Below are positions 5,281 to 58,563 of a stretch of DNA of 64,000 nt, piece after piece; the stretch's first letter is position 1; every line of letters starts with the position of its first letter. The notes beneath the pieces are model-generated. The model was given only the letters and a program-made list of their open reading frames with translations, did no database searches and was not told where the DNA came from. A program made the position numbers and the translations under genes. The DNA is from Leucoraja ocellata (lineage: Eukaryota), in assembly GCA_036785375.1 (NCBI GenBank), contig JAWMAR010000086.1, forward strand, positions 7,378,001-7,442,000, read 5' to 3'.

Positions 5281-5343
5281 CACCCATTCTCTCCAGAGAT
5301 GCTGCTTGTCCCTCTGAGTTACTCCAGCATTTTGTGTCTACCT
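5281..5343 (+). repeat. Single arm of the hammerhead-associated (Penelope-derived) repeat family
   Basis: cccattctctccagagatgctgcttgtccctctgagttactccagcattttgtgtcta matches the arms at about 50060-50123 and 57165-57310. Confidence 0.85.
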
Positions 5344-5639
5344 ATAGATTCCAGAACTTAAACATCCACATCTGACTCAAAATAACCAAGTTTTGTTATT
5401 GGCTTGTTTTACTTTTATGTGTGTCAAGTTTAACTACATGTTAGATTTGTGTTAAAATCATACTCTTAAGGTAATAATGAACAGTATGAAATACATCTTA
5501 AAATTATTTCTATCTTGTCGTTCAATCCTATAATCTAAATAGCACCCCGATTCCAAATGTTGGCTCTTTTTCTTACCACATAATATGATACTGTGCCTTT
5601 ACTAGGGGATATTACCATCTTAATTTTCCCCCACTCTCC

Positions 5640-6300
5640 CCACTCACAAATCTACTCCCCTTGAACTTATGGAACTCCATTCCACCAATATTGTTAAATA
5701 AACTGACGAGGACCATTATTGTTGCATAAACTAACCAAAGTACTCCAAAACATTGTCAGAATTCCTTTTAAACTGCACACCACTACCAAACACCTGATGC
5801 TCATTTTATCAATCACTGATCTCATCTCCTATGGAGATCTTCCTTCCATAGCCTCCAAACAGGGTCACCAATCAGACACACAGCCATTTCTCTTTTCCCC
5901 AAGACACACAAAAGGTAATGACCAAATAGCTCGTTCCTGACAAGTTACATTTATTTTCATTGTTCCTCCTTTTCTGATCTTTCCATCGACAGCTGAAACT
6001 TGGCCAATTACACCATTTCCAACTTTCAGGCACCAACTGGTATATATCCTATTCTTCTGCACCACTACCCCAACTTGGATGCTCCAAAGGCCCTTCACAT
6101 TATTCTTCAACTTTCCTTTCAATAGTCCTCAGGTTGTAAAATTTTGCTTTCAGTCATTTTCTTCAAATAAATGTTTCTATGGGAATCTGTGCTAGCCCAT
6201 AGCATGTCCAACCCTTATGGAAAATCCTACTCAGGCCTCAGAACTAAAATTATCACTCCTACTCTCACTCTAACTCAGAAACTTTTTAACCTTGCAGCCA
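5640..6300 (+). mobile_element. Degenerate Penelope-like element, RT region
   Basis: Frameshifted remnants ITDLISYGDLPSIAS, FPKTHK (cf. LPKIHK) and VSMG (cf. GVAMG..GPSYA) occur in the order expected for a PLE RT. Confidence 0.6.
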
Positions 6301-7574
6301 ATTGCCATATTTCGCAAGTCTTTGTCCTCATCTTTTGCTACATCTAGCTGTTAAATGGTTTTCAACCCATTTCCACACTCACAATGCAGTTCCATCTGGG
6401 TCTGGGTCCATGCAGTTACAGCACCAAAACAGCATTGTATACTTATCTCATCACTTGCATTTCAAGAAATCAAACTAGCAAGGTTTCAGAGTATACCTTT
6501 ACAAAACAATGGTAGATATCAAACTTCACCCAGAAAACTATGTATAATTCTTAAGCATGATGAAGCACCTTGCAAGAAAATGCATTCCAATCAGCAGCCA
6601 AACAAACTACACACCAGCAAACATGCTATTCTTAGCCACCATGTACATCAACATTATTTGAAAGCATGAAAATTATCCTTCTGCAGAAGGCACTATTGCA
6701 AAGAGAGAAGAGCTTTCCGTTCCTCTGATAGCGAAACACTGCACACCATGGTAAAAATTAATAGGAAACACAGATATAAGACATAATCTCGGTTGACATA
6801 ATAGCTTGGTTGACATCAAAGAAACTGAATAACGATCCAATGAAGCAAAGGAACACAACAATGTTAATGGTGACTAGCTGGCATATCGATGACTTAAAAA
6901 TGGCAAATTCCAAAACACACATTAATAAATGGAAACAAACAAGGGCGCAAAGAGATTAACTTTAATGACCTCTTCACAGCAGGTGAAAAATTGGAAAAAA
7001 AAGTCAATGATACGAAGAGCCTTGACGTCAAATGCACTGAACAGATAAAAATGTTTGGGTCAATAATGAGGAAGGGGCTGCTGAGCCTAGTCGGATCTCC
7101 GATTATGCACCTAAAGTTTTGAGAAAACTGTACATTGCTGCACGTTTGAAGCTGTAGAAAGACCCATTGTACAACCCATTTAAGGATACCATAATATCCA
7201 CAATTTTCCACCTCTACAAACATTATAAGCTCATCACCTTGAGTTACTGGTCCAAGAAAATAACATAATCAAACACATTGGATTCAAGCCCAGATAGTCA
7301 TGCACCAGCCAGGTGCTGAATCTTATGCAAGGCACTGAAAATGGTTTTGAGTATATAAAAACAGAAAATGTTGGAAGGATAACCCAAATAGCTTGACTAT
7401 TCCTATACCTTTAACATTCCTTTGTTTTATCCTCTAACTGGCCTCATCTCTCAACTTTAATGTCTCTTTGTTCCTGTCCTTCGTCTTTCTCCTCCGGCCT
7501 CAGTAATCGATCAACCTGATGACTTCATCAAGAGCTACCCATTAGACCCTACTTCACTCTGGACTATAAAACCC

Positions 7575-7700
7575 AGTTCTGATCAACAAGTATAGATATG
7601 AAATATCAATTATGTTCCCCTTTCCACAGGTCCTGGCTGGCCTGCTTAGTGCCTTCAGCATTTTTTGTTTTCATTTGAGAAACCCAACATCTGGGGGTTT
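7575..7700 (+). repeat. Old, diverged member of the hammerhead/pLTR repeat family
   Basis: ttctgatc...tgaaatatcaa...tttccacag...cctgcttagtgccttcagcattttttgtttt has the family layout, preceded by a pyrimidine-rich tract. Confidence 0.5.
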
Positions 7701-9029
7701 TCGATGTAATAGTTTCAAACACACCATGCGCTAAGAATTCGACCAGAGCACAAGATCAGGCCTCAAGTTGGTGATGGCTATCTCTGATGGATCTGTAAGC
7801 CGTTGGTCCACATCCACCAGCATCTGCCAATCCAGGGCTACCTCAAGCTGTCCAAACCTGGTCCTTGGTGGAATTTTCCATTAATGTCTCATGAAATACT
7901 AAATTCACGAAAAAAATTTAGAAATTCTGACAAAGAATGAACTTCCTGCCTCTAGGTCTCTGAAAACACACATACATTTGTTATGTCCATGCAGGCAGCC
8001 AAGAATCAGAACGATATGTTTAAATTTTGAAAATAAACGATACCACTTTAATAACTATTTATTAGAAATGTTTTGCAGACCTGGGAAGGTTTTTATTATT
8101 GGCAAACCTTTTGAACCACACTTTCCAGAAACGGCACGATATACAGTCGTGAACAATTTAGTTACATAGCAATATTAGCATGTTATTGTAGTATTGAAAA
8201 GATAAGGCATGTAACCTCAGCAAAGGATGAAAATTAGAAACTAGCATTTTATCTTTAATGAAATAGGTCTCAGTTCTCTTTTATGCATTATACCTAATGG
8301 AAGCGTTATTAAAAGATGATTATTTTAAAGAAGATTTTTTTATTTAATTGCTCTCAGTGCATTTTAAAAGCTGGTTCTGCTGGAGTTTTGATAATGACCA
8401 CACAAAGTGGTTAGCTATTACTTTCTAATCTATTGGTTATTTATATGAAAAAAAGTTGAAAGAGCAAGTTAATTTGCAATTACTTTAGGTTTTGCTAAGC
8501 TCCGTGGCAATGCAATTGAGATTGTCAAGTTCGGGAAGTAATCTCAAAACTTGGACTCCTTTATCCACTTATTCTGTTCACTGACAGGAACATTTTTTTA
8601 AATTAACCCAAAATGAAAGGGAAATTCAGACTATTGATATTTAAATGCATAAATTAAATTCATGCCACTGAATAAAATCTGGAAATAGGAAGCACTCTCG
8701 GTAAATTGTGCTTTAATTGGATTGGCAGTGGAGAACACGAACACATCAATCCCAATACCACTGATCTACTTAACAAACCCTCCCAGTCAGCTGTAAGGAC
8801 AGAGTCAGAACCATTGCCCTCATGATTACACCTGTGACTTTACTGACCCGATGGTAAATGGAATGAGAAATGCAAGGTTTGTGCAGTAAATGCTACGGTA
8901 ATAAATAAAACTAGCTTGACGAAGAAGAAAAAGGTAAATCACCTAGAGAATGTAAGATATAAAAAAAGTGAATTTACAGGTTAGCTAAGAAAAATGAAGC
9001 CTATAGTAAAGCTAAATTAGACCATATAT

Positions 9030-12530: not shown

Positions 12531-12652
12531 CAACTTTTCGGGCCGAAACGTTGCCTATTTCCTTTGCTCCATAGATGCTGCCTCACCCTCTGAGTTTCTC
12601 CAGCACTTTTGTCTACCTTCGATTTTCCAGCATCTGCAGTTCCTTCTTAAAC
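12531..12652 (+). mobile_element. Truncated hammerhead-family insertion with a 16-bp target-site duplication
   Basis: Flanked by atgcattcttaacatg (12515-12530, 12653-12668). Contains ccgaaacgttgcc and the family arm, ending ccagcatctgcagttcc. Confidence 0.85.
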
Positions 12653-13499: not shown

Positions 13500-13780
13500 G
13501 AAAACAATTCCATGGTAGTGCAAGAGGTGGTCCATTGTACTCCTTAATGAGGTAGGATATAGGTTGTGCAGGTCAGTTCAAGAACCTGATGGTTGTAGGA
13601 AAGTAGCTGTTCCTGAACCTGGTTGTGTGGTTCAGGACCAGGCTCAGGAACAGATACTTTCCTACAACCATCAGGTTTCTGACCCTCCTGCCCAACAGTG
13701 GCAGCAAGAGGAGGACATGGTGGGGATCCTTGATCAAGGATGTCACCTCCTTGAGGCAACAACTCGTCGATGTTTTCAAA
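13500..13780 (-). mobile_element. Rex1/Babar LINE 3' fragment containing an internal fold-back duplication
   Basis: ORF 13573..13779(-) reads SLIKDPHH..LLPLLGRR..TTRFRNSYFPTTIRFLN, the C-terminus of the RT seen at 15198-15926. Confidence 0.8.
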
Positions 13781-14870: not shown

Positions 14871-14914
14871 AGTGGAAATCATGGTTAAGTTATAAGAAAA
14901 GGATCATGGAAGTA

Positions 14915-15094: not shown

Positions 15095-16170
15095 CTGAGA
15101 GTCAGAGTGGGCCATCATACATCCACGGCCCTCAGCCTCAGTACCGGCTCTCCACAGGGCTGCGTACTGAGCCCCCTGCTCTACACCATCTACACACATG
15201 ACTGCACCCCCGCCCACCACAGCAACACCATTGTCAAATTTGCGGATGACACTACAGTGGTGGGACTCATCTCCGGGGGGGGACGAGTACGCCTACCGGG
15301 ATGAGGCGGAGCAGCTGACAGTGTGGTGTGGAGAAAATAACCTGCTCCTCAACACCTTAAAGACAAAGGAATTAATAATAGACTTTAGGAAGAATAAAAC
15401 GGACATGGTACCATTGACTATCAGAGGGGACTGTGTGGAGAGGGTGGCGGATTTCCGCTTCCTGGGAATCCATATTGAGGAGGACCTGACGTGGAGCGTG
15501 AACACCACTGCGCTGCTGAAAAAGGTCCAGCAGAGACTGCACTTCCTGAGGGTGCTCAGGAAGAATAACATCACTCAGAGACTGCTGCTGTCCTTTTATC
15601 GGTGCTCCATTGAGAGCATACTAACATACTGTGTATGCGTGTGGTACACCAGCTGCACAGCGGCTCAGAGGAAAACGCTCCAGAGGGCCATTGACAACGC
15701 CCAAAGGATTGTCGGCTGCCCTCTCCTTACCTTGGAGGACTTACACAGTTCCCGCTGCACCAAAAAATCCCAGAGTATCATAAAGGACATTTCCCACCCC
15801 GGACACTCCCTGTTTGAACTGTTGCCGTCAGGCAGACGGTACAGATCTACAAGGACAAGGACGAACAGGCTAAAAAACAGTTTTTACCCCACTGCTATAA
15901 AAGCACTAAATGTAGCCGCCAAGTAAAAGAGGGGCCAGACATACTAAGGGAATGTGGTACACTGTGAAATCGACAGAAGGATGGAGGGTTGGGTGTTTAT
16001 GCGTGCTATTTTCGTGATATTTATTTTAGTTGTTTATCTTTTAATATTTTATCTTGTATGTATCGTTAGCTTTTAGAAAGGTTTGAATGGTGCACTGGCT
16101 GGCTGACATTTTTAAATTTCGTTGTACATGGTTCATGTTACAATGACAATAAAGAAACTATTCTACTATT
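15095..16170 (+). mobile_element. Young 5'-truncated Rex1/Babar-type non-LTR retrotransposon (RT C-terminal half and 3' UTR)
   Basis: ORF 15107 has GSPQGCVLSPLLYTIYTHDC...KFADDTTVVGLIS. ORF 15198..15926 has KTKELIIDFRK...QQRLHFLRVL...HPGHSLFELLPSGRRYRS. One frameshift in a G8 run. 3' stem-loop followed by tgacaataaa. Confidence 0.93.
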
Positions 16171-16690
16171 TATGCTCCTTGGTTTCTCTTGTCATTACTG
16201 CCACATCACCAACTTCTGCGTTCACTGGATCAATCTCTGTACTGTTCTTTGCCTTCACCAACATTCTACCACAATGTTATTTACCCCCCATTTTAGAAGG
16301 GATCATTTTCTACACGGTTTCGTAGTTTACTATTCCATCTCTAGCAACCTCCCATCTCCTTTGCATGCATCTCTGCCCTTTCACTGCTTGCATTCCAACT
16401 ATCCGGGGATAGAAAAATACTCGAGGGAAACAGCAATTCAATTGTTTGTCACTTTTAATTCCCCATCCTACTTCCATTGTGTCCTCTCTTCTTCCAACTA
16501 GCTATATCACAATGCACAGGACCAAATAATGTCAAATAACTTGTCCATCTCATAATTGAGCATTTTGTTTTGATGAAAGATGACCCACAACACAAAAAGT
16601 GTTTTTATTTCTTCTCCATTGGTGCTGACCGAGTAATGTTTGAGTACAGTCATTAATCATTTTGTATCACAATATTCAACATTTTTTCTT
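16171..16690 (+). mobile_element. Degenerate Penelope-like fragment (linker/endonuclease region and pLTR-like end)
   Basis: FRRDHFLHGFVVYYSIS (cf. FRRD.SL.DSLVHSS) and FNSPS motifs, followed by a decayed ttgatgaaag...ctccattggtgctga family motif. Confidence 0.55.
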
Positions 16691-17748
16691 TCCACTCCTT
16701 TTCATTCATTTTCTACTTGCATTTCTTCCAGACAGATCAACTATGATTAATAAGCTCCTAGTCACCTTCTCTTGCTCGTGTCATTCATATCTGTGCCAAG
16801 CATGAGGCGATACAAGCTACGCTCTCCCCTCCATTTAGGCCAGCTAAAAGCTCTACAATTTAAGATGGGTTATAAGCTTTAAAAGTTAAAGTTATCAAGT
16901 TAATTTTATTCTGAAATCACCAATTGATTCTGTAATCTGTACTTTTAATAATTAATAGAATTTTTAAAAGGCACCACGGTGGTTTGGAGTTCTTTTAACT
17001 TTAGGAACTGCTTGCTTGTCCTGTTTGATTAAATTTTCCAATTATTCTTAATGTCTCTAGCATTTTGTTGTGATCATTCCAGTATATTTTTGGGTTAACC
17101 ACCACCTGCTTCCTTCCGGCACAGGGAGGATTGCTTAAGATGGGGAATTTTCAGGAAGTTTGCACTCTGTTAATGGTAACCAGGTGTTTTCCAGGGGCAG
17201 AGTGTACTCATCAGAAAGTTCAAAAGGTAAATGAATAATTTTAAAGTTACGATCTAAAATGATTATAAAGAATTTATGTCTGGACTGAACTTTATGGGAT
17301 GAAGGGTCTGTTCCTGTGCAGTATTGTTTAATGTTTCAACAGCATTTTCTGTTCTTAATGAAACAGAAATGCCGTGTCTTCCGGGTGAATGGAAATTGCA
17401 GTATTTATTGAATGCAAAATATTTATTTACTCATCTCAGCCGTATAAGCAAACATACCCTTTAAACAATGTTTCTGTTCATATCATCTGGTATCTATGTC
17501 ATTGGATCTATGGCCGATGATTTTTCTCCACCTAAACTTCATGGTTCAAAAGTTTATAGATTTCCTATTTCTGGTGCATAAATATTTGTTAAATCCCTTT
17601 ACTCACCCCCCAAAGTCATGTGAAAAGATGGGTGGCCTATCAGTATTTAACAAATTAAGATTGAGCATGAAGGTAACCAAACATGTTTCCACATCCAGCT
17701 TTGGAATCAAACACAGGAACTTCATTCAAAATAACATCCACATGCCGA

Positions 17749-17870
17749 CACAGGAAACTGCAGACGCCAAAATCATGTCCAGTTCAGAAGGGTTTACACC
17801 TGAAAAGTCATCTGTCCATTCCCTCCAGAGATCCACCTGACCCACCGAGTTTCTCCTGCACTGTTTAGCT
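17749..17870 (+). repeat. Diverged hammerhead-family repeat
   Basis: gaaactgcagacgcc...cagaagggtttacacctgaaaagtcatctgtccattccctccagagat. Confidence 0.65.
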
Positions 17871-18719
17871 CAACATCCACACGTCAGTGAATTTCGTAGC
17901 TTAATCTTTTAAAATCAAATCGGTTATTGCATTTATCGGTTTATTAGATCTATAACCAAAAACTGATCCAATATTTGGCAATTTTACGTTCACCAGGAAA
18001 TAAAATTCTGGACTCAATGAAACTAAAATAATTGGACTCAATGCTCATTTGATGTTTGATTCAAATTTTTTTTTCAAATCTGTAATGAGGAATTGGACAA
18101 CGGATCTGCTGGCTCCTTGGGATTGGAAATCGGTACTTTATGTTTGTCACTTTACTTTCTGCACTACTTCCATTTGTGCGTCAATAAACAGAAAATGCAA
18201 GAAAAACTCAGTAGCCTTTCCACCGATGCTGCCAAACCTCCTGAGTATTTTCTGCATTTTCAGATTTTTTCCGATTTCCCGCATCTGGAATTTTTGGACT
18301 GTCATGTATATCTGCTGATAGGACAGGCAATCTGACACAGAGCACAAAACAGTGCACATAATTCTTGAGATATTTTGAACTTTAACGAAACTGCAAAGTG
18401 TCCTGTTACTTATGGTCACTAAATTCTCATTATCTTCCATATATAACTTCCCCCTATTGTTCAGAGAAAAGGATAGTAGTGTCCTTGAGAAAGTCTAATT
18501 ATGTTTATGTACTGAAAGACCATTAACTAAATTAACAGGAAAGCCACTTCCTTCATACTACTTGGTGGGACATCAGCATATCGCAACACTACCAACATTA
18601 TTTCATAAGTAGGGTCATTCAGAAAATGAAAATTGTGCAAAAATGAAATCTTAACAAAAGTTGTGGTGTTGCTCATGTATCTCAGCATTGTGTCCAAGCA
18701 ATTGCAAATGTATATTTAT

Positions 18720-18940
18720 ATGAAGGAAGGAGGAACTGCAGATGCTGGTTTACAAAAAAAGAGACAAAGTGCTAGAGTAACTCTTCTCTGGAGGAAACAT
18801 CTCTGGAGACTATGGACAGATGACATTTTGGGTCGGGACCTTTCTTCAATCAATCCGATCCGAAACGTCACCTACCCACGTTCCCTGGAGAAGTTGCCTA
18901 ATTTGACATGTTATTTATAGTACTTTGTCTCTTTTTTATA
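18720..18940. repeat. Fold-back hammerhead-family element
   Basis: Left arm ggaactgcagatgctggttt...gacattttgggtcgggacctttcttca is inverted relative to the right arm ccgaaacgtcacc...tactttgtctcttttt. Confidence 0.8.
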
Positions 18941-19744
18941 TTTATATTAATTTATTTCACACTACATAACCTTCAATGTGGTGGGTCAAAATTTCCACAG
19001 GGTGACTGTTCAGAAATAGATGCAATTTAAAAACGATATTATACAACATGCAATATTGTTCCACATATCTATGCTCTATAATGCAAGAGCATTTAATTCC
19101 CAAGCTGTGAGTATAATTGAAGTCCAGGCAGCAAAACATTCATACATAATTTAGATTACATTCTTTTGCACTTTAGTAATTTGAGACTAGCAAATAGATT
19201 TAACAGAAGTAATAACCTTATCTGCATTAGTATTGGTTTAAATGGAACAGTGTAACCTTCTAGTTTCACATGTATAACAACTAACATGTTACAAAGTACA
19301 GTTGAACGATTGATTATTCTTTCGACAATAAAGCTAAAAAAGTAATGATTCTTTGAGTTGCTTGTGGGTTCATTGATCGAGCCCTGGAATCACGAGATCC
19401 CTTCCTCTCGATCATGCTGCCTCGTCCACTGTGATCCTAAGCTTTCTTCTGATGGGAGGCTGGCTCCTGGCTCATCAGCACAATGTGGATGAGCATTGTG
19501 CAGTGCAGGGCACACAACTGAATGACAAAGAATGATTTTGATAACAAGCAAAGCCCCACACCCATCCTCACCATCCACAATTTAAGCATTCAACATACCT
19601 TTACATTGAAACATGAAGCTCTCAGGGATTATTAAGAAAAAATCTTGTAATTTTGTTTCACTAAAATCATTCACATACATGATGATGAACACTGCTAAAC
19701 TAATTGAATTAAATAAAATGTAAAGCAAAAAAAAGCCTGACCCT

Positions 19745-20560
19745 CTGCTTGCCTTGCAGCCATTTTACTCCATATAACCGACAACTGTGCAGCCAAGTAC
19801 AAATCCAATTCAATTTACAAATTAACAGATGACACCATCATAGTGGGCCGGATATCAAATAATGACAAGACGGAGTATAGGAAGGAGATTGAGAACCTCG
19901 TAACCAAGTGTCAAGACAACAAACTTTCTCTCAATGTCAGCAAGGCAAAAAAGGCAATGATGGACTTCAAGAAGCGAAACGGTACATATATCCCGGTATA
20001 TATTGATGGCACCGAAGTAGAGATGGTTGAAAACTTCAAGTTCCTCAGAGTAAAGCATTTTATTGGGATGCATCATAACATGAGTTGGGAACAGCTCCAT
20101 TCGCACCACAAACAATTGCAGAGAATTGTGGATGCAGCCCAGATCATCGCACAAACCAACATCCCTTCCACAGACTCCATCTGTGCTTCATGCTGCCTTA
20201 GCAAAACACCAGCATAATCAAGGACGAGTCTCATCGTAGTCACTCCCTCTTCTCCCATCAGGCAAGAGGCACAGAAATGTGAACATGCATACCTCCAGAC
20301 TCGGGGACAGTTTATACCCAGCAGTTATCAGGCAAATGAACCATACTATCAACGACTGGAGAGCGGGCCTGAGCTACTATCTACCTCATTGGAGACCCTT
20401 AGACTACCTTTAATCGGACTTTATCTTGCACTAACGTTATTCTCAAACGTTTATCATGTATCTCAAAACTGTTGACGGCTTGATTGTAATCATATAGTCT
20501 TTCCACTGACTAGTCAACCAAAAGCTTTTCACAGTACCCGGGTACACATGACAATACCTA
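19745..20560 (+). mobile_element. Decayed Rex1/Babar LINE (RT end and 3' UTR)
   Basis: ORF 19843 reads GRISNNDKTEYRKEIENLV...SLNVSKAKKAMMDFKK...VENFKFL. The tail is gcttttcacagtacccgggtacacatgacaata. Confidence 0.88.
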
Positions 20561-21405
20561 AATTAAGTTTTAATGGGATCACTGAAAGGTACCTGACAAA
20601 TTTCCCAGTCTGTGATCAGGAAAACATGTATAGGCTTGTGCTGTTCCCTTGGACTTCCTGGTGAAGACACCAGTGCAGTGGAAGAGTAGCCTGAAGCACT
20701 GGCAGCAGAGCCGATGCCACAGCCATTTTAGGCCCAAGCCGGTGCTAGACCGCAGGACTTTCATGTAGAACCAGAACTAAGCCCATGGCAATCTTTTTTT
20801 TTTAATTCTCAAGGAAAAATGGTAAACAATGAAAAATAAGTTCTAATCAATTCAGAATTACCAAACAGACACTTGCAGGGATCCAATTGCTTTTAACCAA
20901 GGGCTGAAGACTGCCGTTAGATAAAACCACACTCCATGTACCAGATCTGCTGGTTACTGATTGGTGAATGGAGGGGAGGGGACAATTAATGGGAACAAAT
21001 AAAAGAACAGAAATTGAATTAATTTAGGATTATTGTAATTGGATCCTCGAGGGCGAACGTGAATTAAAAATAGATTTCCCTCATTCTTTGCTTGGTACTC
21101 AAGAAATACATCAACCAATGTAAATATTGAAAAAAAATATTGCTTTAACTTATAACTCAGATCATATTAAAGAAATAAAATTGGAATAGAAAATAAGACC
21201 ACTAATTGAAAGCTAGAAATAGTCATATTAAAATTGATATGGGATGCATTCAAGTTGCATTTAAATCATAATAGAAAGATACTGCATGAGCAAATTCAGT
21301 AAGAGTACTACAACAGTAAATTTACATATTCTGCCAGAAATTATTTTTAAGTAATGTTTTACTTTTGCATAGTATTTATTTCATAATTGATCCAAAAACT
21401 GCCCA

Positions 21406-21630
21406 GTGTGTAGAAAGGAACTGCAGATGCTGATATATAACACCGATGGATGCAGAGTGCTGGAGCAACTCAGATCAGGCAGCTTCTCTGGAGAAAAAGG
21501 ATGGATGACAATTCAGGTCGGGACACCTCTTCAAACTCCTTTTTCAGTCTGAAGAAGGGTCTCGCCCGACAAGAAAGGTCATCCATCCTTTTTCTCTGGA
21601 AATGCTGCCTGATCTGCTGAGTTACTAGCT
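21406..21630. repeat. Fold-back hammerhead-family element
   Basis: Arms caggcagcttctctggagaaaaaggatggatgac and gtcatccatcctttttctctggaaatgctgcctg are inverted. The centre is cagtctgaagaagggtctcgcccga. Confidence 0.85.
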
Positions 21631-22139
21631 CGTGTGTTATGGTTTATCCAAAACAATTCATTCTTCACATTGATATTACATTCATTGTTACGTTGATTTT
21701 GAACCAGATTTTTAAAAAATTCACTAATGCATGCTGAATTTACTGGTCAGAACAATTAAATTATGCAACAGCCAAGTCATTAATGAGGTAAAGCAAAATA
21801 TTACCGCCCAAACATTCCTACAGCTCATAACTAAAATTAAAAGACTTTTTCATTGGTCTATAATTATTTAATTAAAATGTCACTTGTAAACCAGAGACAA
21901 TTACAGCCATTCCCAGTTGCCCAGTAGATCAATACGAGGGAGCAAACCAAGATTACATTGTAATGGGTTGCATAAATTGAATTAATTGGAAATAATAAAA
22001 TCTGTTCTGAAAAAAATTATTGGTCCATTTACAGCTTTTATGAATCAATGTATCTGATGAACATGCAGTTTTGAAATTAAACTTAGTGGTATACATTTGA
22101 AATAACTCAGGAATATGCACAGTGCCCAACAGTAATGAT

Positions 22140-22450
22140 ATTCAATTCTGAAATAAAAACAGAACAGTGGAAGAACTCAAACATCTGTGGAGGCAAAAAG
22201 GTGCAAGTCGATTTTTGGGATGAGACACTGCATCAAGACTGAGACAGAAGAAAGATTGCTATATAGTGGTGTGTTTGCGTTAGGGGGGGAATAGATGCTA
22301 GTAGGTAATTGGTGAAGCCAGATGGGTAGGGGATAATGACCAAATCAAACCAGGTGGGGGAGGTGATGTGTTTGAGACTTTGTTGATAGGTATGATTAGA
22401 TGGGGAGGAGGTGATGGGCTTATGGAACAAGGTTGGGAGGGGGTCAGGGG
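22140..22450 (-). mobile_element. Old Penelope-like terminal repeat (pLTR) with a decayed hammerhead motif
   Basis: The minus strand reads a pyrimidine-rich tract, then agtcttgatgcagtgtctcatcccaaaaatcgac...ctccacagatg...ctgtttttatttcaga. Confidence 0.55.
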
Positions 22451-29045: not shown

Positions 29046-30190
29046 TATCTGTTGCTTAAACTACGTCCCTACCCAATCTGTCCATCATCATCATCTACAA
29101 TTTCAGCTGAATTGGATTATATTTGTACAGGAGAATAGACTTCCGAACTGAACACTGAATTTTTCAACTTGAGATAACTTGCTCTCTTGCATTATTAGAA
29201 CAGCCGGCTTTTGCCTCTTGCCATTCCAGCTCATTTTCGATTTTCCTTTTTTGGTTGTATATTCTGGCCTGCTGGGCGTGTTCCACTGGTTTACGATCAG
29301 CAATACAATACAGACCCCAAAAAAAAATCGTTATCTGATTTTAACTGCCATTTCATTGCCACGTTTAAATAGGTCTCACCCTGTCAGAGATGTTCCCTTT
29401 GTTCTACCAAACCCTTCCTTGCTACCTAAATTGAACATGTTTTCACCCTTTCCCAATTCAGATAGAGAATTCCACGCACAAACCATTAACGGATTCTCTT
29501 TCCACAGAAGCTTCCCAACCTTCTGAGTTCTTCTTGCACTTGTTTATGTTTCATTTCACAATCTACAAAGAAAAATGAATGGCTCCTCCACAGAATCAAG
29601 ATATTGATTAAATTATAACAATTGTAAAGATCGTTGGGAGGTTATTTTTTTATGCCAAATATAAAAAACATTGTAATCTCACACAGATATTTTAAGATAT
29701 GTTTCTGTCACTTAGTCCAAAGTTGAAGTGATGAAAAGGCTGACTGCTCCTCCAGTATGCCAAATTTTACACCAGTCACTGAAATATTACTTTCACAGGA
29801 ACAACTGAATGACACTTCATTGTCTTTGAAGGGCTTTGAGCTGATAGGAGGTTCTGAAAGGTCCTCACGTTAAGAGCAGTCATTCTTTTGTTGCTGTCGA
29901 CGATGCCAAGTTTAAATTATTTAACTTTACCATTAAAGATATTGTATCTGAATTTAACGAGTTAATCACTTTCCCTGCGTGTTCCTTGTAGCAAACGTTA
30001 GTTAAATGTTCTCCCAATTCCATGACAATGTTTACAACAGAAGCAGAAAATGAGTAACATCTAATTTGGTTAAACAGGGCTAAGCATTATGATGTGCCAT
30101 ACTTAATGCAGTTAATGCTTTTCAAGTGCTCAGACTGCTGACGTAGATGTTTCATTAAAGTGTGTAACTGTAAAGAGAACATGAGCTCAC

Positions 30191-36253: not shown

Positions 36254-36374
36254 TAAAGCCCACAAGAACATGAACAACCATGGTTCAATCCTAAACTCCA
36301 CTGTTGTCTGCATAGAGTTTGAACATTCTTCAATCAAGGTGCAAGGCAAGAGGTGCTCTGATTTGTTCCTATAT

Positions 36375-38290: not shown

Positions 38291-41200
38291 TTATGTTCCA
38301 GCATCTGCACAGATTGTTTAATTAATTAAATCAGGGAATACAAGGTTCATGGTTCACAAAGCAAGCTCTTTATCACCGTGAATACTCAAAAGGGAGTATT
38401 TATGATGATAGAGGACTTACTTCATATGATTACACCAAGGAGGATGACATTGTGTATACTTGCCTCATGGTTACATGTCTCCAGAACATAGCGTTGACTG
38501 TTATTGGGCTGGAGAGTTTTCCATTATGCAGCATGACCAACTGGAATAGACTTAATTGATCTGTCAGTCTCTGCCACATTTCAGAAATCATTCCAATACA
38601 TAACTACATTTTGCAAACAGATTTGATGGTTCAGATATCCCTTGATTAATGTCCAGACATGTTCCATATTTTGACATTATGAACCAGTCCCGACTTAAAT
38701 GATTAATTGGTCGATAGGTCTGCAAGAATTCTTTCAATTAGATGTTGTTCAACTATGAGTGGTAAATTTACTGAGCCCGTACTTAATCCTTGGCAGCCCG
38801 AGGCAAGGAAAGAGAAATGCAAAGTAGAAGAAAGCCAAAAGCATCATACTCTATGTTCTACATGGGTAACAATAACGAAAATGGCAAAAAGGTGGTCTGT
38901 GGACACAAGTCCTTCTGTGTCCACTGTAACTAGATTTAAGCCAATGTCTTTTCTTTTATGGAGAATGATTATATAAAAACACATGCAATAGCAATTATTC
39001 AGGGAACATTATACAATGACTACATTTGAGGAGGCAGTTAAGGCATGAAATATATAACACAGAGATCAGTTGAATCATTTACAGAACATAGTTCACAACA
39101 GAATGAATCACTGTTGCGTGTTTTTCCAATCTTAGCTGTAGTGCACATTAGGTGGGTAGTTACAGTATTAAAATGCAACATTAATACATTGAATCAATAC
39201 ATATAACTATCTAATATGAAACTAAGTCAACCAATATACAAGATATAGATCAATCTATTTCACCATAACATGTTTTGAACTTTTGATGGCCTCGCAGCAG
39301 TATCATTACTAATTAAAGCACAATGTTTTATGATCACAAATTCCTCAATTGGGTGGCTTAAAAGGAACAAAGGAAAATAATTAAAACTATGTGATGAAAT
39401 CCGAAACAAAACCGTAATGCTGGAAGAACTCAGCCAATCAAGCTGAAGCAATGGAAAGTGAAAACAGTTAATATTTCACGTCTTAAATACTTCAAAAAAT
39501 TAAGGAAGTGTGAAAGCAAATTGGTGTAAGTGGCAAAGTAAACATTCACCTTGTGCTCTTCCACTTAAATTAACTTGCTCTCAGTGCAATTCAAAAAAGA
39601 AGCACTTATTCTCCACTCAAACAATGTCACCATCAATTCAGATTTGGCAGGCGGTAACTAATGGGTAATGAGGCCTTAGAATGCTTCAGTATGTAATCAC
39701 AAGACATGCAGATATTTAGCCAGAATATCATCTGATAGGGAGCCAAGTAAAAACATTGCAGAAAATATACAATTTGTCTTGTGGGCATTTACTGCTCATA
39801 ATTAAATGCCTGGATTAAAAAAAAAATTAAACGAGGATACTTCCACGAAAAAAGATACCCTCTCGTATATTTCAGGTGTTTCACAAGCATTCTCACTGAT
39901 TTCTAGAAATGGAAGTTGAGCATGATTTGCAATCCAGATGGGATTATCATTCCCAAATTTTGCAAGAATTCAACAGATCCAAAAAGTTACTGCTTGCCTA
40001 ATTTTACTTTGAAATCAAATTTCAACCCCTGCAAAATTAAGGATTTCAGAGCATTAGTACTCTTCATCTGACAACTTAGGATAGCATCAGTGCTTCTCCT
40101 TCAGGGTCATACTTTTCATTTTGGCCCTTGGATATAGAAATAAAGCTTCAACACACGGTTTCCTACTTGAAAGCGGCAATTTAAAGATCAGGCTAAAAAG
40201 ATGGACAGTGGTAGCTATGACTAGAATGGATTACAGATATACCAAGATGGAAACATAGATATGACCTTTCTTGAACCCCAGCAGCCACTATCACCTATCT
40301 TATAATATCCTAACAACAAAAGTTTGCTGAAACTCATTATTTGAAAATGATTCTTTCTTAACTGTGCTCAAAGTGGTTCCAAAGATATTTTGTCAGGCTG
40401 GTGCTGGAGAAGTAATTGCTTAAAATTCAAGATGATGCAAATTGAACTAAATGCTCCGTACACTCTAATCATAATTGACAGTTTCAATATGCCAAGTTTA
40501 TTAAAAACTAAGACAATATGCTTGCCAATTCAACTGCATCTAATTTGCTTACCAAATTGACAAAGCTTATTTGGGAGCTATTGGTGAATCTCTATATACC
40601 AATTTTATCTCATTTGATATAAACCCCAGAGCTCGTTTTTTTTTTTTAAATGGTATAAATCTGTGCTGAAGTTACACGATTCTACTAATTTCCAATCCAA
40701 TACCCTTTGCTTCTCTGATTCAATCAAATTATTTTCTAAGTTCTGCATTGATTTATTTTTTGTTCTCACCAAGACGTAATAACTCATTTAATGCACTAAT
40801 AGGCCAAAGGTATGTCCATTTTGTAAGTTTATTAATGTAGTTTTAATTGGTTACAGATCACAACCCAAATTTTGTGCCATTCACAAATTTAATTTGTTTT
40901 GGAGTCCAAATCATTTGCATGAACTATGACCATCAGTGGTTGTAAAACTGATCTTGATGGATCCCTTACACCACCTTCAGCCAGACTGAATAGCTTCTCT
41001 TTGGACTCTAGTTTCTGCAATGAAATTAGCTATTATTCATCCTCTCACCTTGGTCATTTATTCCTTACGAGACACCCTGAAGAACTTTTGGAAATTAAAA
41101 AAGATTACAATTGTAGTTATTTATTCTCAGTTACTTCTTTACCTCCAGGAAAAAAAACAACCTTCCACCACAACCCTCTTTTCTATGAATATGCCAATTC

Positions 41201-41427: not shown

Positions 41428-41490
41428 GGACAGGCAGCATCTCTGGAGAGAAGGAATGGGTAACGTTTCGGGTCGAGACCCTTCTTCAGT
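41428..41490 (-). ncRNA. Hammerhead-family repeat fragment with a complete minimal type I hammerhead-like core (41461-41489)
   Basis: The minus strand reads CUGAAGA-A-GGGUCUCGACCC-GAAAC-GUU-ACCC. The core boxes and a perfect helix II are present. Activity is untested. Confidence 0.6.
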
Positions 41491-44493: not shown

Positions 44494-44750
44494 TAGTTTA
44501 CAGCATTGTAACGCATCATCTTTATATGAAGTCCAATGTCCTCAAAGGGTTAGAGGTGAATCAAACAGTACCATAGCTTATGGAGGACCATTCAGAAGCA
44601 TGAAAATGGAAGGAATGAAGCTGTTCCCGGGCCTTGTGGTGCATGGTGTCACCTTCTACCAAATGGGACCAGAAAGGAAGAGGAATGACCAGGGCGGGAC
44701 AAGGATTTGATTATGTAACCTGCAACTGTCATGGAATATTTTTTCCATTA

Positions 44751-44908
44751 ACATGGTGAAACCAAAATGTATAAACATGGCCTTTATTAAAATCTGCCAA
44801 TGTGTACATTAACCATGTCATATTTTCTATTACAAACCTCAAATTGTGGAGTACAGAGGTAAATAAATAAATGATGGGTCTTTGTCCCAAACATTATGGA
44901 GGATACTG
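44751..44908. mobile_element. Second, solo copy of the Tc1 right TIR
   Basis: acatggtgaaaccaaaatgtataaa...gatgggtctttgtcccaaacattatggaggatactg is the reverse complement of about 43169-43320 and a direct repeat of about 44405-44475. Confidence 0.88.
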
Positions 44909-45119: not shown

Positions 45120-45195
45120 TGTTTACCTATTCCTTCACTCCATGGATGCTGCCTCACCTGCTGAGTTTCTCCAGCATTTTTGTCTACCTTCTATT
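45120..45195 (+). repeat. Single arm of the hammerhead-family repeat
   Basis: cctattccttcactccatggatgctgcctcacctgctgagtttctccagcatttttgtctaccttc matches 12554-12620. Confidence 0.8.
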
Positions 45196-46299: not shown

Positions 46300-47790
46300 C
46301 ATTTTGAGAGTGGATAAGAATACAAGCCATGGTCAGTAGTTTGCAAATGACTATAAAACAAGTGGAATTATCGTTAGTGAAAGTGGTCATCAACAATTAC
46401 AACGGGATCTTGATCAGCTGGGTAAGTGAGGTAGGGAACAGCAAATGGCATTCAATTCAGATACGTGAAAGGTGAACAGTAGAGCCTCCCAGAGGGTGTT
46501 GGAAAAAAGACTGAAAAGTACAAGTATGTAGTTCCCCGATACCAACAACACAAGTAACATGTTTGGCATGATGGACGTCATCAGTCAGGGCACGGAGTAC
46601 ATGATTTGGGGGGGTTTGTTGCAGTTGCACAAGGTGTTGGTGAGGCTGCATTTGGAGTATTGTGATTACCCAGCTATGTGAAAGATGTTATTAGTGGGAA
46701 AGAGCAATGAAGATGTACCGGAATAAACAAAATGCTGGAGTAACTCAATGGGAGTATCCCTGGAGTATGTGGATAAGCAACTGTTCGAGTCAGTATCTTC
46801 TTCACACTTTTCAGTAGATGTGATATTTTCGGTACACTTCACATGGAGAAGTAAATAGAAAATAGAGAGCAGGAAAGCGGCCCTTTTCAGGTTGGCACAG
46901 TACAACATGTGGGACACAGCAGTGTGCACCGATTACTGATAGCTAATGTGGGTTTAACATGTAATTTGGGAATTAAGTTTGCCTTTATAGCTAAGAGATG
47001 TAAGCACAAGGGCTGAAGTCTTGCAACAATCATATAGAATCTTAGCTTGAGTATTATGCACAATTTTGGGCTGCTTACAGAAGAAATGTGTTCTTGCTAT
47101 AAGCGAGTATGGGTCACTCGAAATAAACATTCTCGGTGGCTGTGCTGCTGTGTGGGTGCAAACCTGCGTTTCGTCCGTTGTCGGGATCGGGTCTCCGGCG
47201 CTGCGGACGCTGTTGAATTACTGCTGAGATACCCCTGTCCCCTCCCGGGTGTCCCGTCCCTGTCTGGGGGCGGCCGGGGGGTGGCCCTGGGTTGGCGGGG
47301 GGCCGGCCCGTTGCGGTGGTGGCCCAGGCTTGCAGCTGGCGCGGAGCGGAGGCGCTGGCTCCGGCTCAGCTCTGCCTGACTCGCTGGGTTGACCGGCAGC
47401 CCTGGCCTGGTGGGGTGCCAGACAGAATTGAACAGTTCAGTGGCGGTTCGGCTGCGCTGGTGGCAAGGGTTCGCCTGGCTGCGGATGGGGCGATTGTCTG
47501 TGTGCATGCGGCGGCACGGTGTCCCAAGACAAATCCCATGATTCCTTGTGTTTTTCGGAATACCAAACTCGCTTATTGAGGGAGTGCAGCTAAAATTCAG
47601 CAGAATAGACTGGGGCCAGTCTGTCATACGGGGACTCAATGAGTCAGATAGGCCTCTACTATTTTGAGTTCAGAGCAATCAGGATATATCGAGATAGGGC
47701 AGGAAATCTGTGTTTAGCTAAAAGCTCTGCCAAGATCTTTTTCAATGGCAAAGTAGGCTTGATTGGTTGAAAGGCCAACTATTTATTTTG
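46300..47790 (+). mobile_element. Degenerate CR1 RT/3' fragments with nested insertions (hammerhead-family arm at about 46725-46810; TIR element at 47101-47574)
   Basis: caattacaacgggatcttgatcagctggg (QLQRDLDQLG), ggtgaggctgcatttggagtattgtg (VRLHLEYC) and gcta|ttgagggagtgcag (AIEGVQ). Confidence 0.7.
47101..47574. mobile_element. GC-rich non-autonomous TIR element with an apparent 2-bp AT target duplication (ISL2EU-like)
   Basis: Termini aagcgagtatgg / ccaaactcgctt are inverted at 11/12, extending imperfectly to about 28 bp. AT lies on both sides. Removing the element restores cttgctattgagggagtgcag in the CR1. Confidence 0.75.
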
Positions 47791-48275: not shown

Positions 48276-48364
48276 GTCTGATGAAGAGTCTTGATCCGAA
48301 AGATCACCTATTCCTTTTCTTCAGATTCTGCCTGACTCGTGAGTTACACCAGCATTTTGCGTCT
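48276..48364 (+). mobile_element. 89-bp hammerhead-family insertion with a 17-bp target-site duplication
   Basis: atctccaaggtgacatg occurs at 48259-48275 and 48365-48381. The insert begins gtCTGATGAagagtcttgatccGAAAgatcacc. Confidence 0.88.
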
Positions 48365-49993: not shown

Positions 49994-50123
49994 ACAGTGT
50001 GTAGAAAAGAACCGCAGATGCTGGTTTACACCGAACATACAAGGAATGGGAAGAGTCACCCATTCCTTCTATCCAGAGATGCTGCCTGTCCCGCTGAGTT
50101 ATTCCAGCATTTTGTGTCTATCT
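49994..50123. mobile_element. Internally deleted fold-back hammerhead-family element with a target duplication
   Basis: acagtgttaa at 49984-49993 and 50124-50133. Contains the aaggaatggg..cccattcctt hairpin. The ribozyme core is deleted. Confidence 0.82.
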
Positions 50124-51423: not shown

Positions 51424-51641
51424 AGGGCCTGTCCCACTTGGCGATTTTTTCGGCGACTGCCGGCATCATTGACTGACATATCAGGTCACTGAAAAATTGG
51501 TGGCGTGATGATGTATGACTCGCCGTTTTCTCAAGCGCCGCAACATTTTTTTTGTCGCTGCTGGAGTTTGAAATGTTCAAAATCTTTTGGCGACACTGAT
51601 ATGTCGCCGAAAAAAAAAGATCGCCAAGTGGGACAGGCCCT
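51424..51641. mobile_element. PIF/Harbinger MITE, 218 bp
   Basis: TIRs agggcctgtcccacttggcgat / atcgccaagtgggacaggccct (22 bp perfect), with TAA duplicated at 51421-51423 and 51642-51644. Confidence 0.93.
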
Positions 51642-52605
51642 TAAAAGGTCATGGTTTCTAAAAATGGTATAACAATAAAGAAGTCGGAATCAATATTTTT
51701 GAATTACACAAATCCCTTCTGTCTTTGCAGAGGTGAATGAATGGTTGTTATGGGGTCATTAAGGTTCGTCGGAAGGATGCTCAGCAGGAGTGCTAGATTA
51801 ATGCTTTTTCCAAATGTTTCAAAAGAATTTGTGCAAGAACTAAAGCTAATTTGGAGCCAATGCATCCCTGCTTCAGCTGTTAGCATCTGCAACTACATGA
51901 AACTGATATTTGATATCAATACAATTAAAACTGGCATTTTAGGAAGTTACATGTACTGCTAATATGTGACACAAAGATTACATGTTAAAAATTTAGAATA
52001 GATAAATGTGAAAGTTTTGACGTCGTAGATCAAAGTATGTAATGCTGCATAATTTTAATTCTTTATTGTATCACATTGAGAACTCACCTGCAATTTTAAA
52101 GGCCACCTCTACAGAATATATTACCAATGGAGTTAATATTGATGATTACGTATTTACAAAATTGAAGCGGATTTATTTCTCACAACCGAACACCTGTTAT
52201 TTGATTAACCTACTCCATCGATCTTGTGATATAACATAGAAAAAATGTAATTCAATGTTGCGTCATCCAAATATTAGACAAGATTTAGAAAAGCACAACC
52301 ATTTAACAGCTCAAAACTGCTGATTAACAGCAGTAACTTGGATTTGTAAAAACCCATTTAACACAGTTAACTATCCCAAGCCATTAATAGGAAGATTTTA
52401 AGATTTGACAGCAAGCTGTATGAAGAAGTCCCCAAAATAAAGGGATCTATGGCAACACAGATGGAACATTGGCTAAGTAACAGGTAGACCAGTCAGAAAA
52501 GGGCCAATTTCAATGGGAGAACAGATCTTGTATGAGTAAATTAGAATCAAAGCTTGGCAATAAGGAGATGCCATTTTAAGGTAAAAATGTTTCAGCCACA
52601 GAATG

Positions 52606-55000: not shown

Positions 55001-56521
55001 CGTTCCCACACCTAGTGCCTTGATCGCAATTTCAGTTCACTCTTCGCCAGTTTTGTCAGTCTTCCACCTAAAACGCAAACTCTTTCTCTTTCCGCAAATG
55101 CTGCCTCACCCGTTTAGCAAGTCCGACATTTAAAATTTAATATTTTGAGCATTTGCACTTTTAACTTTCACTTACAATTCATTTTATATTGTGTACAATT
55201 TAAAATTAATGTATTTCACCCGATCTAGCTTTTAACTTTGGTTTAAAAGCAAACAAATTACTTGCTAATATTAAGATGCAGTTAAACATTACTTCCAATT
55301 TAAATACAAACATTCTATTGCAATTATATGACAGCAAAGTTATGATTAGGATTTGATAGTAATCAGCATTTTTCTAATTGAAATACATACAATGGAGAAT
55401 AAACCACTTCAGAGCTCTTTGGCTTATAATGTTTTGTCATTCATGAAAGATGGCGCAAAATGCCATGAATTAAACCAGACAGATGTTACTAGGCAATGGT
55501 ATCCTCAACAATGCTGACTGTAAAATAATTTCAAATTCCTCCACCAGTGACACATTATGCCAGGAACTTCAATCAAAGAAGCAGATGCATTGGAGAAAAT
55601 GGAATTATGAAATGATTATTGAAGTAATTTGGGATACAAATTAGCTACCAGTGCCAGAGATCATAATAGATTTGAATACTGTTAAATATTAAGTTATAAC
55701 TTAATGAACAAGCATTCCATTTTCAGTATTTCCCACTGTGTGGTCAATGTATAAAAAGTTGTCGTGTCAAATCAATATTTCTGCGCTGATTCAATAGGGC
55801 ATAGTTGCAAGTGCACGCAATAGAGAAATGGGTTCATTCTGTATCATCTTGCCAACTTTAATACTCTGTGTAGGGGTCAACAGAAGTCAGCATTAGTTTC
55901 ATAGTTGACAACTTTCACTGTCATTCCAACTACGAAGTCTAGACCATTTAATAACGTAAAGTTCCCAGCATCCAAGCAGAACCAAAGTTATCAATTGGAC
56001 CAAATTGTTCTGAAAACTAAAATTTAGCAAAATTTGAGATAAATCACATTAAGTATAGGACTGCAATTCTGCAGCAGCAGTTCTCAAAAACAAATATATC
56101 AAAAGGGATATTCTTGGCAACCTCAAAAATATTTTCAGTGTGTTTACTGAATGTTATTTTAAATTCAAAGCAAACAAAGTTAAGATAAAATGTTAAAAGA
56201 TTGTCATAACTTAAAGGGTTCAATTAAATTTGCTGATATAGAGAACAAGTGTTTTCGAAAATAAAATATACATTTCATTCACTATCTCACAGGAGGGGAT
56301 GAAAAAATGCTTGTATTTCAATATTTCAGGATTAAGTGACAACACTAATGTCCATAAGGAAAACCAAACATATTTATATCGTCTCTCATTACAGTACATC
56401 CAGTGACTATAAGGAGTGAGGACTTCCCAATTTCTGCAGGTTCATTTACTGCCATCCCCAAGATACTTTCAAGTATGAAATTCATCAGTTATCGGTACTG
56501 GCACAGGACGGGGTAATTTAC

Positions 56522-56628
56522 CTGAATGCCATCAAGTAATTTGCTCATGCACCAGAAACTATCAGCTTCAATATTCTGCAACACTTCATCAGGCAAACTG
56601 GAAACGTCAAAATTTTCCACCTCTCCTT
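56522..56628 (-). CDS. TBC1D22A: TBC1 domain family member 22 (Rab-GAP) internal coding exon, 107 nt: (E)GEVENFDVSSLPDEVLQNIEADSFWCMSKLLDGIQ
   Basis: Manual minus-strand translation. Acceptor ttccccctgcAG and donor CAG|GTaaat. IEADSFWCMSKLLDGIQ is a conserved TBC1D22 segment. Ends in phase 0, matching the next exon. Not in the ORF track. Confidence 0.93.
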
Positions 56629-57045
56629 CTGCAGGGGGAAAACAAAAAACATTAACATAACCATGAGCTGAGGGAGTTTATGAGAATGATATGCACATGA
56701 AATTCAACAGATATTCCCTTCATAAAATTATTGAACTGCCAAATTGTCCCACGTTATTTAATTCAAGTGGTAGCATTTTAATAGCAGAGCAAATAGTACA
56801 ATGTATTTTGAAGTTAAGAGTTAGTGATGTAGCACAGATAAAGGCCCTTTGACTCACTGTCTACACTGACCATCAAGCACCCATTTCAACTAATACATTG
56901 CATTTTATTCTCACCTCATTCCCATCTCCCATATTTTAATCACTTACCTGCACACTAACAGCAATATTTTAGTATCCAAGTAATCTACATATACATCATG
57001 GGGCGTGAAACAAAACTGGAGCACATTGAGAAAACCAATGTGGTC

Positions 57046-57345
57046 GAAGATGGATACAAAATGCTGGAGTAACTCAGCAGGACAGGCAGCATCGCTGGAG
57101 AGAAGGAATGGGTGATGTTTCAGACCAGTCTGAAGAAGAGTCTCGACCCGAAACATCATCAATCCTTTCTCTCCAGAGATGCTACCTGTCCCATTGAGTT
57201 AAGGGGTCGACCATGCTGTGAGTATGAATCGAGGGCAAACTCGCCCGAACTCGCGGATTAGGTCGCCCAAGTGGGACAGGTCCTTTACTCCAGCATTTTG
57301 TGTCTATCTTCGCTTTACATCAGCATATGCAGTTCCTTTCTACAC
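57046..57345. mobile_element. Fold-back hammerhead-family element with a near-intact core at 57130-57157
   Basis: Inverted arms gaagatggatacaaaatgctggagtaactca / tgagtta..ctccagcattttgtgtctatcttc. Core CTGAAGAagagtctcgacccGAAAcatc. Imperfect 14-bp duplication aaaccaatgtggtc / aagccaatgtagtc. Confidence 0.88.
57202..57284. mobile_element. 83-bp deleted PIF/Harbinger MITE
   Basis: Right TIR caagtgggacaggtcct. The left end retains only aggg. TTA is duplicated at 57199-57201 and 57285-57287. Confidence 0.8.
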
Positions 57346-58563
57346 AAGCCAATGTAGTCACTGGGTGAACATGCCAACTGAACACAGACAGCAGCAGAGG
57401 CCAGGACTAAACCCAGGGTATGAAAGGTGCTTGGTGGTGTGTGGGGCCACAATGGGCCAAGGGGCTTGTTAACATACTCTATGATTCTATAATCTTCAAC
57501 TTTACGAATTCAGAATACAAATCATGTTGCTTAACCAGACTATGTACACTTCAAGAGTATTGCATTGGCTTTGGCATATCCTGCAGTTGTAAAAAGATAC
57601 AATACAAACCCATTTTTTTTTTTGCAATCTGTCATCACAATTTATCTCCAAATTCTCAAGCTGTATCACACTTCTATGTCAGTGCATCCTCCCTGAAATT
57701 CGACACGATAAGTCAGACTATGTAATCAAGCTGGCATCTAACCAAGGCTCACTGTTGCTCATGATGTGACCTCTTCTACATTGAAGAAACAAAATGTAAT
57801 GTCACTCCTACCTTGACCTCACACAATAGTTTCCAGTGTCCAAAGAGGGTCAACACAAGTCTGATGAACTTTGTCTACCAATATTTGACAATTCCCTTTT
57901 GCTGTTAGCGTCAGAGCTGGGCACTTCGCTGCATGTTTAACATCTGTAATATTAACTATCCACAGGTTCTCCCTGATCTGTTGGCATTTCTCCCCTACTC
58001 CTTCTCTCATTAATCTATCAACCAGACAGCTTTGAGAACAGTGTATTACTGAAATAAGCTTAGCCTCGCCCTTTAGCAGAAGTCATTTGATTTATTCATC
58101 CTTCCTTTCCCCACTCTGCAACTTGAGGTTTACTTGTTTTTTCAATATTGCACGATTGATGAAGGAACTTCGAACAGAGATAAAACCCATTTCTCTTTAC
58201 ACAGATGCTGCCTGACTGCTTACAGTATTTTCTATTTTTATTTCACATTCCAGAAATTTCAGTTTGTTCATTTTAATTTTCTAACCTGGGCTTTATTCAA
58301 ATATTGTATCATTTGTTCCAATTAGTATTTCAAGGCCCTTGGGAGGTAGGCAAACATTTCATCGGCCTCTGTGATTAAGCATATAACTGTATCGCCACTT
58401 GGTGAAATTTGTGTATAATGATAACCAAAACATCCTCCACTGTAGGCCACCAGTACTCAAATGAAATCTGAATGATTATTTTGTCGGGGTGGGTGCATTC
58501 ATATTTCCCAACAATGAACATCATCAGCCCAGATTTTAGGGGGCTTATTCTGATCCTTTACAT

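Follow-up and report, generated by a model that had tools for sequence, protein, structure and literature searches.

Hammerhead-centred fold-back repeats in a Leucoraja ocellata contig are probably dead 3′ ends of a Penelope-like retrotransposon

The window analysed here is a 64,000-nucleotide stretch of Leucoraja ocellata DNA (GenBank assembly GCA_036785375.1, contig JAWMAR010000086.1, positions 7,378,001 to 7,442,000 of the forward strand), across which repeat finding and BLAST identified a shared arm in both orientations, in many copies arranged head to head around a sequence resembling a hammerhead ribozyme. A preliminary description made from the sequence alone had listed 16 positions and related the repeats to Penelope-like elements (PLEs). 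A profile of 15 arm segments from the window gave 22 matches there at E ≤ 1 and no match when the window was reversed, and six old copies were each recovered when left out of a second profile of 24 segments (E 2e-10 to 0.006). By profile searches and leave-one-out analysis, 15 of the 16 listed positions belong to the family; the site at 16570, with a profile E of only 0.08-0.3, could not be confirmed as a member, and three further members (18160-18295, 29459-29550 and 55062-55118) were added. Matches at E < 0.01 cover 2084 of the 64,000 nt (3.3%). The copies are 50-92% identical to the majority sequence of the young copies, in line with the old and younger subfamilies that had been proposed. 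The features are as follows, with strand in brackets.

57046..57348 (+): fold-back with its two arms head to head, the short one at 57046-57127 and the long, tailed one at 57128-57348, about an axis near 57129
57130-57157 (+): hammerhead core of the 57046 copy, with two disabling changes
57035-57045 and 57349-57359: target duplication of the 57046 copy, 11 bp with one mismatch
57202..57284 (unstranded): nested piece of an unrelated high-copy element, outside the family, with a TTA duplication at its flanks
41428..41490 (-): truncated arm with the sole family core that passes the hammerhead descriptor; C3 at 41489, position 17 at 41462
21398..21642 (unstranded): fold-back with the long arm to the left of an 8-nt central spacer and the short arm to its right, decayed cores, 11-bp duplication with one mismatch
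18722..18936 (unstranded): fold-back with a deletion at its centre, the long arm on the left, the short arm on the right and an exact 11-bp duplication
17745..17871 (unstranded): fold-back, left arm reduced to the tail end (judged by eye), 12-bp duplication with one mismatch
49994..50123 (unstranded): fold-back lacking the entire hammerhead centre; its left end is long and its right end short, and its 10-bp duplication is exact
12531..12652 (+): member of a second subfamily, with a long arm, an inverted arm of about 20 nt and an exact 16-bp duplication
48276..48364 (+): single arm of the short-end class that begins at hammerhead position 2.2, with an exact 17-bp duplication
45121..45193 (+): short-ended single arm that begins a few bases ahead of the predicted cut site, with a duplication of 11-12 bp
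5281..5343 (+): single arm from position 17, short end, flanking duplication no better than chance
46719..46805 (-): decayed arm, from profile searches
7579..7703 (+): old arm, leave-one-out E 2e-10
18160..18295 (unstranded): old fold-back, centre deleted, absent from the preliminary list
22142..22238 (-): old arm with a pyrimidine-rich stretch ending in CAG ahead of it, from a profile search
29459..29550 (+): old arm, absent from the preliminary list
39395..39493 (-): old arm, from profile searches
55062..55118 (+): arm fragment outside the training set, E 2.4e-5, absent from the preliminary list
58157..58268 (+): old arm, from a profile search
16575..16627 (+): possible, unconfirmed, very old fragment, E 0.08-0.3

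A weak inverted fragment (7330-7377, E 1.3) lies beside the old arm at 7579. Two further weak tail- or arm-like fragments, 22858-22915 (-) and 57956-57983 (+), each with E 0.21, are located upstream of same-strand old arms, at distances of 620 and 170 nt, and could be remnants of partial tandems.

Beyond the window, a 701-base stretch around the 57046 copy (56850-57550) was compared with four public runs; it recruited 75,386 contigs in a run of the best-matching organism and 99,288 in a run of a more distant one, counts that should not be read as copy numbers and that include the unrelated repeat nested there. A contig of the second, distant organism bridges the right junction of this copy, and the insertion therefore probably predates the split of the two organisms; the bridge of the left junction in that organism was two letters under the 31-letter criterion. 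In an empty-site comparison within the window, another copy of the host repeat matched the right flank only. Pattern scans of metagenome contigs, viral contigs and prokaryote genomes returned no loci of the family. No RNA data set was listed for the stretch, which has no bearing on its expression. A literature search, with most subscription papers outside its reach, found no account of this family or of a hammerhead-centred fold-back; the family may already be labelled as a PLE in Dfam or Repbase.

Taken column by column, the majority of 14 young arms is G-U, CUGAAGA, an extra A, GGGU-loop-ACCC (a helix II of 4 bp), GAAA, C-G-U-C and A-C, which is the centre sequence given in the preliminary description. 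As had been recognized there, this majority has the features of the minimal type I hammerhead of PLEs, namely the CUGANGA and GAAA boxes and an NUH triplet. The extra base between positions 9 and 10.1, the G10.1-C11.1 pair and the palindromic 15.2-16.2 likewise agree with the consensus for metazoan PLE pseudo-long terminal repeats (pLTRs) in Fig. S3 of Cervera and De la Pena 2014 (PMC4209133). Further likenesses to those hammerheads are C-G-U-C/U standing in for helix III, pyrimidine-rich upstream sequence, a short helix I and mostly single, dispersed motifs. Two-base-pair helix I and GUU triplets also occur in that consensus, the former in the Culex, D. virilis and Oikopleura rows (PMC4209133). 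Hammerhead pairs on opposite strands are described in Schistosoma at distances of 100-700 bp (PMC4209133), whereas in the window cores on opposite strands adjoin each other at position 2.1 and the family is present at a much higher density, the 3.3% given above. The Fig. S3 rows examined include no cartilaginous fish, and the window family differs from the PLEs of that source in having no linked PLE gene.

A strict minimal-hammerhead descriptor, for which shuffled windows gave 0.06 matches on average, was passed by only one family copy (41489, minus strand). This 41428 copy has the triplet GUU and an A at position 2.1, hence no helix I. The descriptor also matched once outside the family, at 62196-62223 (-); this single match, which shows no similarity to the family, was taken as chance given the same null of 0.06 per window. 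In the second subfamily, one U-A pair has become U-G and the loop differs, and the differences seen between subfamilies are located in loop II or keep the pairing through G-U.

Flanking direct repeats with a score of at least 9 were present at 8 of 18 sites, compared with 6 of 300 random intervals. The target duplications are 10-17 bp long and variable in length, and four of the eight are exact over the span compared. Past position 17, the outer arm ends fall into two classes, 60-71 nt (eight arms) and 102-105 nt (five arms), as cut by hand to a precision of about 2 nt on an offset scale capped at 105. The fold-back layout attributed to the whole family holds for six of the nine insertions with mapped junctions, the other three being single arms. 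Exactly one long end, with a tail of 35-40 nt, was found in all six duplication-flanked fold-backs (p ~0.012, post hoc). All three single arms with mapped ends are of the short class, one of them having no significant duplication, and two of the three begin within about 6 nt of position 1.1 (post hoc); the inverted part of the 12531 copy stops 1-2 nt beyond the predicted cut site. At three of the eight left-hand duplications (12531, 17749 and 48276), the sequence ends in CATG, a small sample that hints at a nicking preference.

These insertions carry the traits that the literature ascribes to PLEs: head-to-head inverted ends with a palindromic junction, a one-sided tail of 30-40 nt and variable duplications (PMC3846280; 10.1101/2021.04.23.441226). 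The closest anatomical counterpart in those sources is the inverted pLTR of Adineta Pen2a, an endonuclease-bearing (EN+) PLE (PMC3846280; scheme in 10.1101/2021.04.23.441226), with which the family shares head-to-head arms, a palindrome at the junction and a 30-40 nt tail on one arm. The Pen2a-type duplication is also variable, at 8-10 bp, compared with up to 17 bp in the window. Unlike Pen2a, the window family has no open reading frame (ORF) between the arms, and its axis is the 5′ edge of a hammerhead.

The same measurements bear on two origins outside the PLEs. Short, non-coding, palindromic and very abundant repeats such as these would suit a DNA-transposon MITE (miniature inverted-repeat transposable element), whose terminal repeats would be the arms and whose hammerhead-like centre would have arisen by chance. 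Matching terminal repeats with a fixed short duplication were not found, however; the duplications vary between 10 and 17 bp, one end is 35-40 nt longer than the other, and arms that stand alone have duplications of their own. These insertion features exclude a typical MITE and make a MITE unlikely in general, to the point that we give this origin next to no credence. The repeats might instead be 3′ tails of a non-PLE long interspersed nuclear element (LINE) or short interspersed nuclear element (SINE) with L1-type 5′ inversions, as LINE fragments are common in the window and long, variable duplications also suit LINE insertion. Such an origin is very improbable: no poly(A) or simple-repeat tail is present at the mapped ends, and the hammerhead fit would be left unexplained. 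L1-type inversions cover different parts of the RNA, unlike the two arms here, which repeat the same part.

The hammerhead's 5′ edge holds the fold axis, a TCAG-N-CTGA palindrome centred on hammerhead position 2.1. In four of four runs, the loose ends of reads that lie behind the truncated left arm contain the inverted hammerhead as far as that palindrome and then become mixed (agreement 0.53-0.68). In one run, among the rows listed, a pyrimidine tract leading into CAG precedes the right arm in place of the inverted arm, and the 22140 copy has similar pyrimidine-rich sequence and CAG upstream. With upstream sequence that is not inverted in these loose ends, the arm therefore exists also as the 3′ end of longer elements. 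The regions upstream of seven older copies are mostly unalignable (2 of 21 pairs at p ≤ 0.01). The fold point coincides with what resembles a splice-acceptor site, at which a parent transcript may be spliced. The 5′ end of helix I is also an intron end in D. virilis Penelope (PMC4209133). The family resembles that element in its 2-bp helix I, and a pyrimidine tract with CAG stands before position 2.1 in the parent-type loose end and in the 22140 copy; the D. virilis motif differs in its longer, bulged helix II (PMC4209133).

The catalytic boxes are no better preserved than their surroundings, contrary to what a selected ribozyme had been expected to show in the preliminary description. Outside CpG positions, the core differs from the majority in 14 of 95 cells and the downstream sequence in 123 of 707 (p = 0.57), and in the old copies the core is the more diverged of the two (24 of 50 versus 98 of 302). 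The core bases in these copies thus decay neutrally, like their neighbours. Neutral decay is the expectation for dead retrotransposon copies, and it says nothing against the activity of the parent's ribozyme.

Folding predictions also speak against activity of the copies themselves. For both of the fold-backs that were folded, the prediction places the core inside a long hairpin (-71 and -113 kcal/mol) and gives helix II a probability of 0. For the isolated 41428 arm, an alternative stem is favoured and the predicted helix II probability is 0.003, rising to 0.6-0.7 when 100-nt flanks are included; the 5′ strand of helix II in 41428-41490 (-) can instead pair with bases just 3′ of the cut site, and this alternative stem would block the ribozyme fold without a chaperone. 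The copies in the window are accordingly predicted not to cut and are unlikely to be active.

The preliminary description had called the family retrozyme-like and envisaged cleavage as dimers, and an active family spreading through dimer self-cleavage and circular RNA has to be weighed against these results. The minimal core in the majority sequence would serve such a cycle, and tandem retrozymes are reported in one cartilaginous fish in the literature available to us. Family RNA is also present, accounting for 13,159 of 7,335,232 and 29,702 of 17,596,208 records in runs of two related organisms (0.17-0.18%). Against this, each strand of a fold-back has one sense core, predicted to be buried, and therefore no dimer is possible in cis; none of the five tandem arrays in the window consists of head-to-tail family units; and the core decays neutrally. 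Moreover, 99% and 95% of the RNA reads in the two runs continue into unlike sequence, and among the rows listed there is no pile-up of read beginnings or ends, a weak test given that it drew on other organisms, fragmented libraries and 6% and 1% of the runs. The reads fit passive read-through. The animal non-LTR retrozymes (10.64898/2026.07.22.740005) resemble the family in being non-coding, in carrying a type I hammerhead and in their relation to PLE ends, but are defined by head-to-tail units each with a hammerhead, which the window family lacks; in that source, eight of nine tested Xenopus dimers did not cleave. We consider an active retrozyme-like family highly improbable.

In a single-cell RNA run, the strand opposite the hammerhead at 57042-57185 has about 3-9 times more reads, over both arms, while in a polyA run the strands are at about 1:1. 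Internal oligo-dT priming could explain the single-cell bias; antisense templates have been proposed for PLEs.

We therefore favour, with good confidence, an origin of the repeats as dead 3′ ends (pLTRs) of an endonuclease-type Penelope-like retrotransposon. This origin is likely on the grounds that the majority sequence fits a minimal hammerhead, that the duplications are 10-17 bp and that the copies are predicted not to cut. The sequence, duplications, end classes and decay rate were observed directly, and from them we infer the PLE parent, the priming and the fold-back step. Under this reading, a PLE reverse transcriptase-endonuclease encoded elsewhere would nick the target strands 10-17 bases apart, and reverse transcription would begin either about 60-71 or 102-105 nt beyond the cut site, these two start sites being fixed. 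Copying would mostly end early and leave a single short arm; complementary DNA (cDNA) that reaches the TCAG-N-CTGA palindrome would likely fold back and copy itself into a head-to-head pair, leaving the 35-40 nt tail on one arm only. Inserted copies would then decay neutrally, often losing the centre of the palindrome. Any ribozyme activity would have belonged to the RNA of the parent, probably aided by protein, as has been reported for the anole element.

Several results weigh against this reading, some against the PLE origin and some against its individual steps. Rfam gives no hammerhead in the window or in the best copy and returns only chance matches. Covariation in helix II was not seen either, in a comparison of very low power: there is no two-sided compensatory change among the window copies, and the fewer than 10 informative arms show one G-U change plus loop changes. 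Helix I has only 2 bp in the young majority and is lacking in the 41428 copy. No PLE protein remnant was found beside the arms, with no GIY-YIG matches in 24 plus 9 translated frames near them (Pfam); the sole reverse transcriptase match is LINE-like (RVT_1 and ALKBH8_N, in 2 of the 24 frames), the second Pfam set gave one weak unrelated match in its nine frames, and a protein search with one arm-coded frame gave one candidate and nothing significant. As to the anatomy, the long end of the 17749 copy was judged by eye, and the partner arm of the 12531 copy, at about 20 nt, is far below the usual short end. As to self-priming, the axis base is ambiguous in most fold-backs, and the arms of the 57046 copy are 78% alike, compared with 86% and 85% to other copies, and are thus not mutual best matches.

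Within a PLE origin, the data from the window cannot separate self-priming, two-nick priming and master-copy routes. Self-priming is our tentative choice for the fold-back step, held at somewhat less than even confidence; it is a published PLE proposal, formulated for an antisense template in the source available, and the folding back of a cDNA end would be our own variant of it. Two-nick priming, in which a PLE dimer would start one cDNA at each nick, one per start site, and the cDNA ends would anneal through the palindrome, is possible, if doubtful. It would produce a long arm, a short arm and a long duplication in one step, and with annealed cDNA ends it suits the anole biochemistry as well as self-priming does: the PLE protein of the anole both cuts and extends the two strands, starts at two sites and is a predicted dimer (PMC11167929). 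On the other side, the arms of the 21406 copy share subfamily features and the best match of the 18853 arm is its own partner, as expected of a single template, and no clear chimera was found among the three fold-backs with two sufficiently long arms.

The preliminary description had instead seen the fold-back as a non-autonomous master, transcribed and copied whole in trans. The recurrence of the same axis in the loose-end consensus of four of four runs would fit this, and in the published accounts consulted an alga has non-autonomous PLEs and, in a rotifer, PLE ends suffice for trans mobilization. Fold-back RNA would, however, form the long hairpins of -71 and -113 kcal/mol that bury the core, outer ends and centres vary between copies, and single arms and parent-type upstream sequence also occur; we regard this route as rather unlikely. 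Some other route to the fold-back is scarcely to be expected.

A more specific proposal, which is speculative and rather unlikely, is that a PLE dimer primes both nicks at two start sites and that the cDNAs meet at the palindrome on the hammerhead's 5′ edge. An intron would end at that point too, and its removal would complete helix I and turn on the ribozyme in the parent RNA. If true, the fold-backs would be a very large fossil record of how PLE inverted ends form.

Returning to the PLE origin as a whole, the anole Poseidon element PAc (PMC11167929) is alike in having its hammerhead about 80-125 nt upstream of two alternative 3′ ends, and in that source, as in our runs, no RNA reads end at the cut site. 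The tail of the anole PLE lies between two reverse transcriptase start sites downstream of the hammerhead (PMC11167929). Unlike PAc, whose ORF begins at helix II, the window family has no conserved open frame from there.

The link between hammerheads and PLEs and the anatomy of inverted ends are already published, and the family is not surprising in kind; what is added here is the fold axis at hammerhead position 2.1, adjoining splice-acceptor-like sequence. A repeat that looks like a MITE and reaches the percent level of the genome should likely be annotated as PLE-derived. The formation of PLE inverted ends and of the one-sided tail is still described as unresolved in the sources available, and with a fixed axis, two sharp end classes and tens of thousands of contigs, counting in one assembly could separate self-priming, two-nick priming and a master copy.

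The window as a whole is AT-rich (GC 33-46% per 2 kb) and contains other mobile-element remnants, including the following.

23448-25425 (-), 58545-59267 (-), 15171-15926 (+) and 19741-20217 (+): decayed LINE fragments
35496-35526, 36175-36257 and 51612-51645: ends related to the element nested at 57202-57284
43168-44897: inverted repeats, 75-89 nt long and 84-95% alike, in which a subterminal block is duplicated internally
13578-13682: 46-nt inverted repeat (91%) with a 13-nt spacer

RVT_1 and ALKBH8_N matches lie on two of the LINE fragments, and for one LINE frame the nearest atlas clusters are eukaryotic, with Chordata the commonest among the four members that have a phylum record. The insertion at 57202-57284 in the hammerhead repeat belongs to a high-copy element whose ends share a motif and which has a TTA duplication; we take it to be PIF/Harbinger-like. 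The feature at 43168-44897 looks like a non-autonomous DNA transposon, and the inverted repeat at 13578-13682 lies inside a LINE-like fragment.

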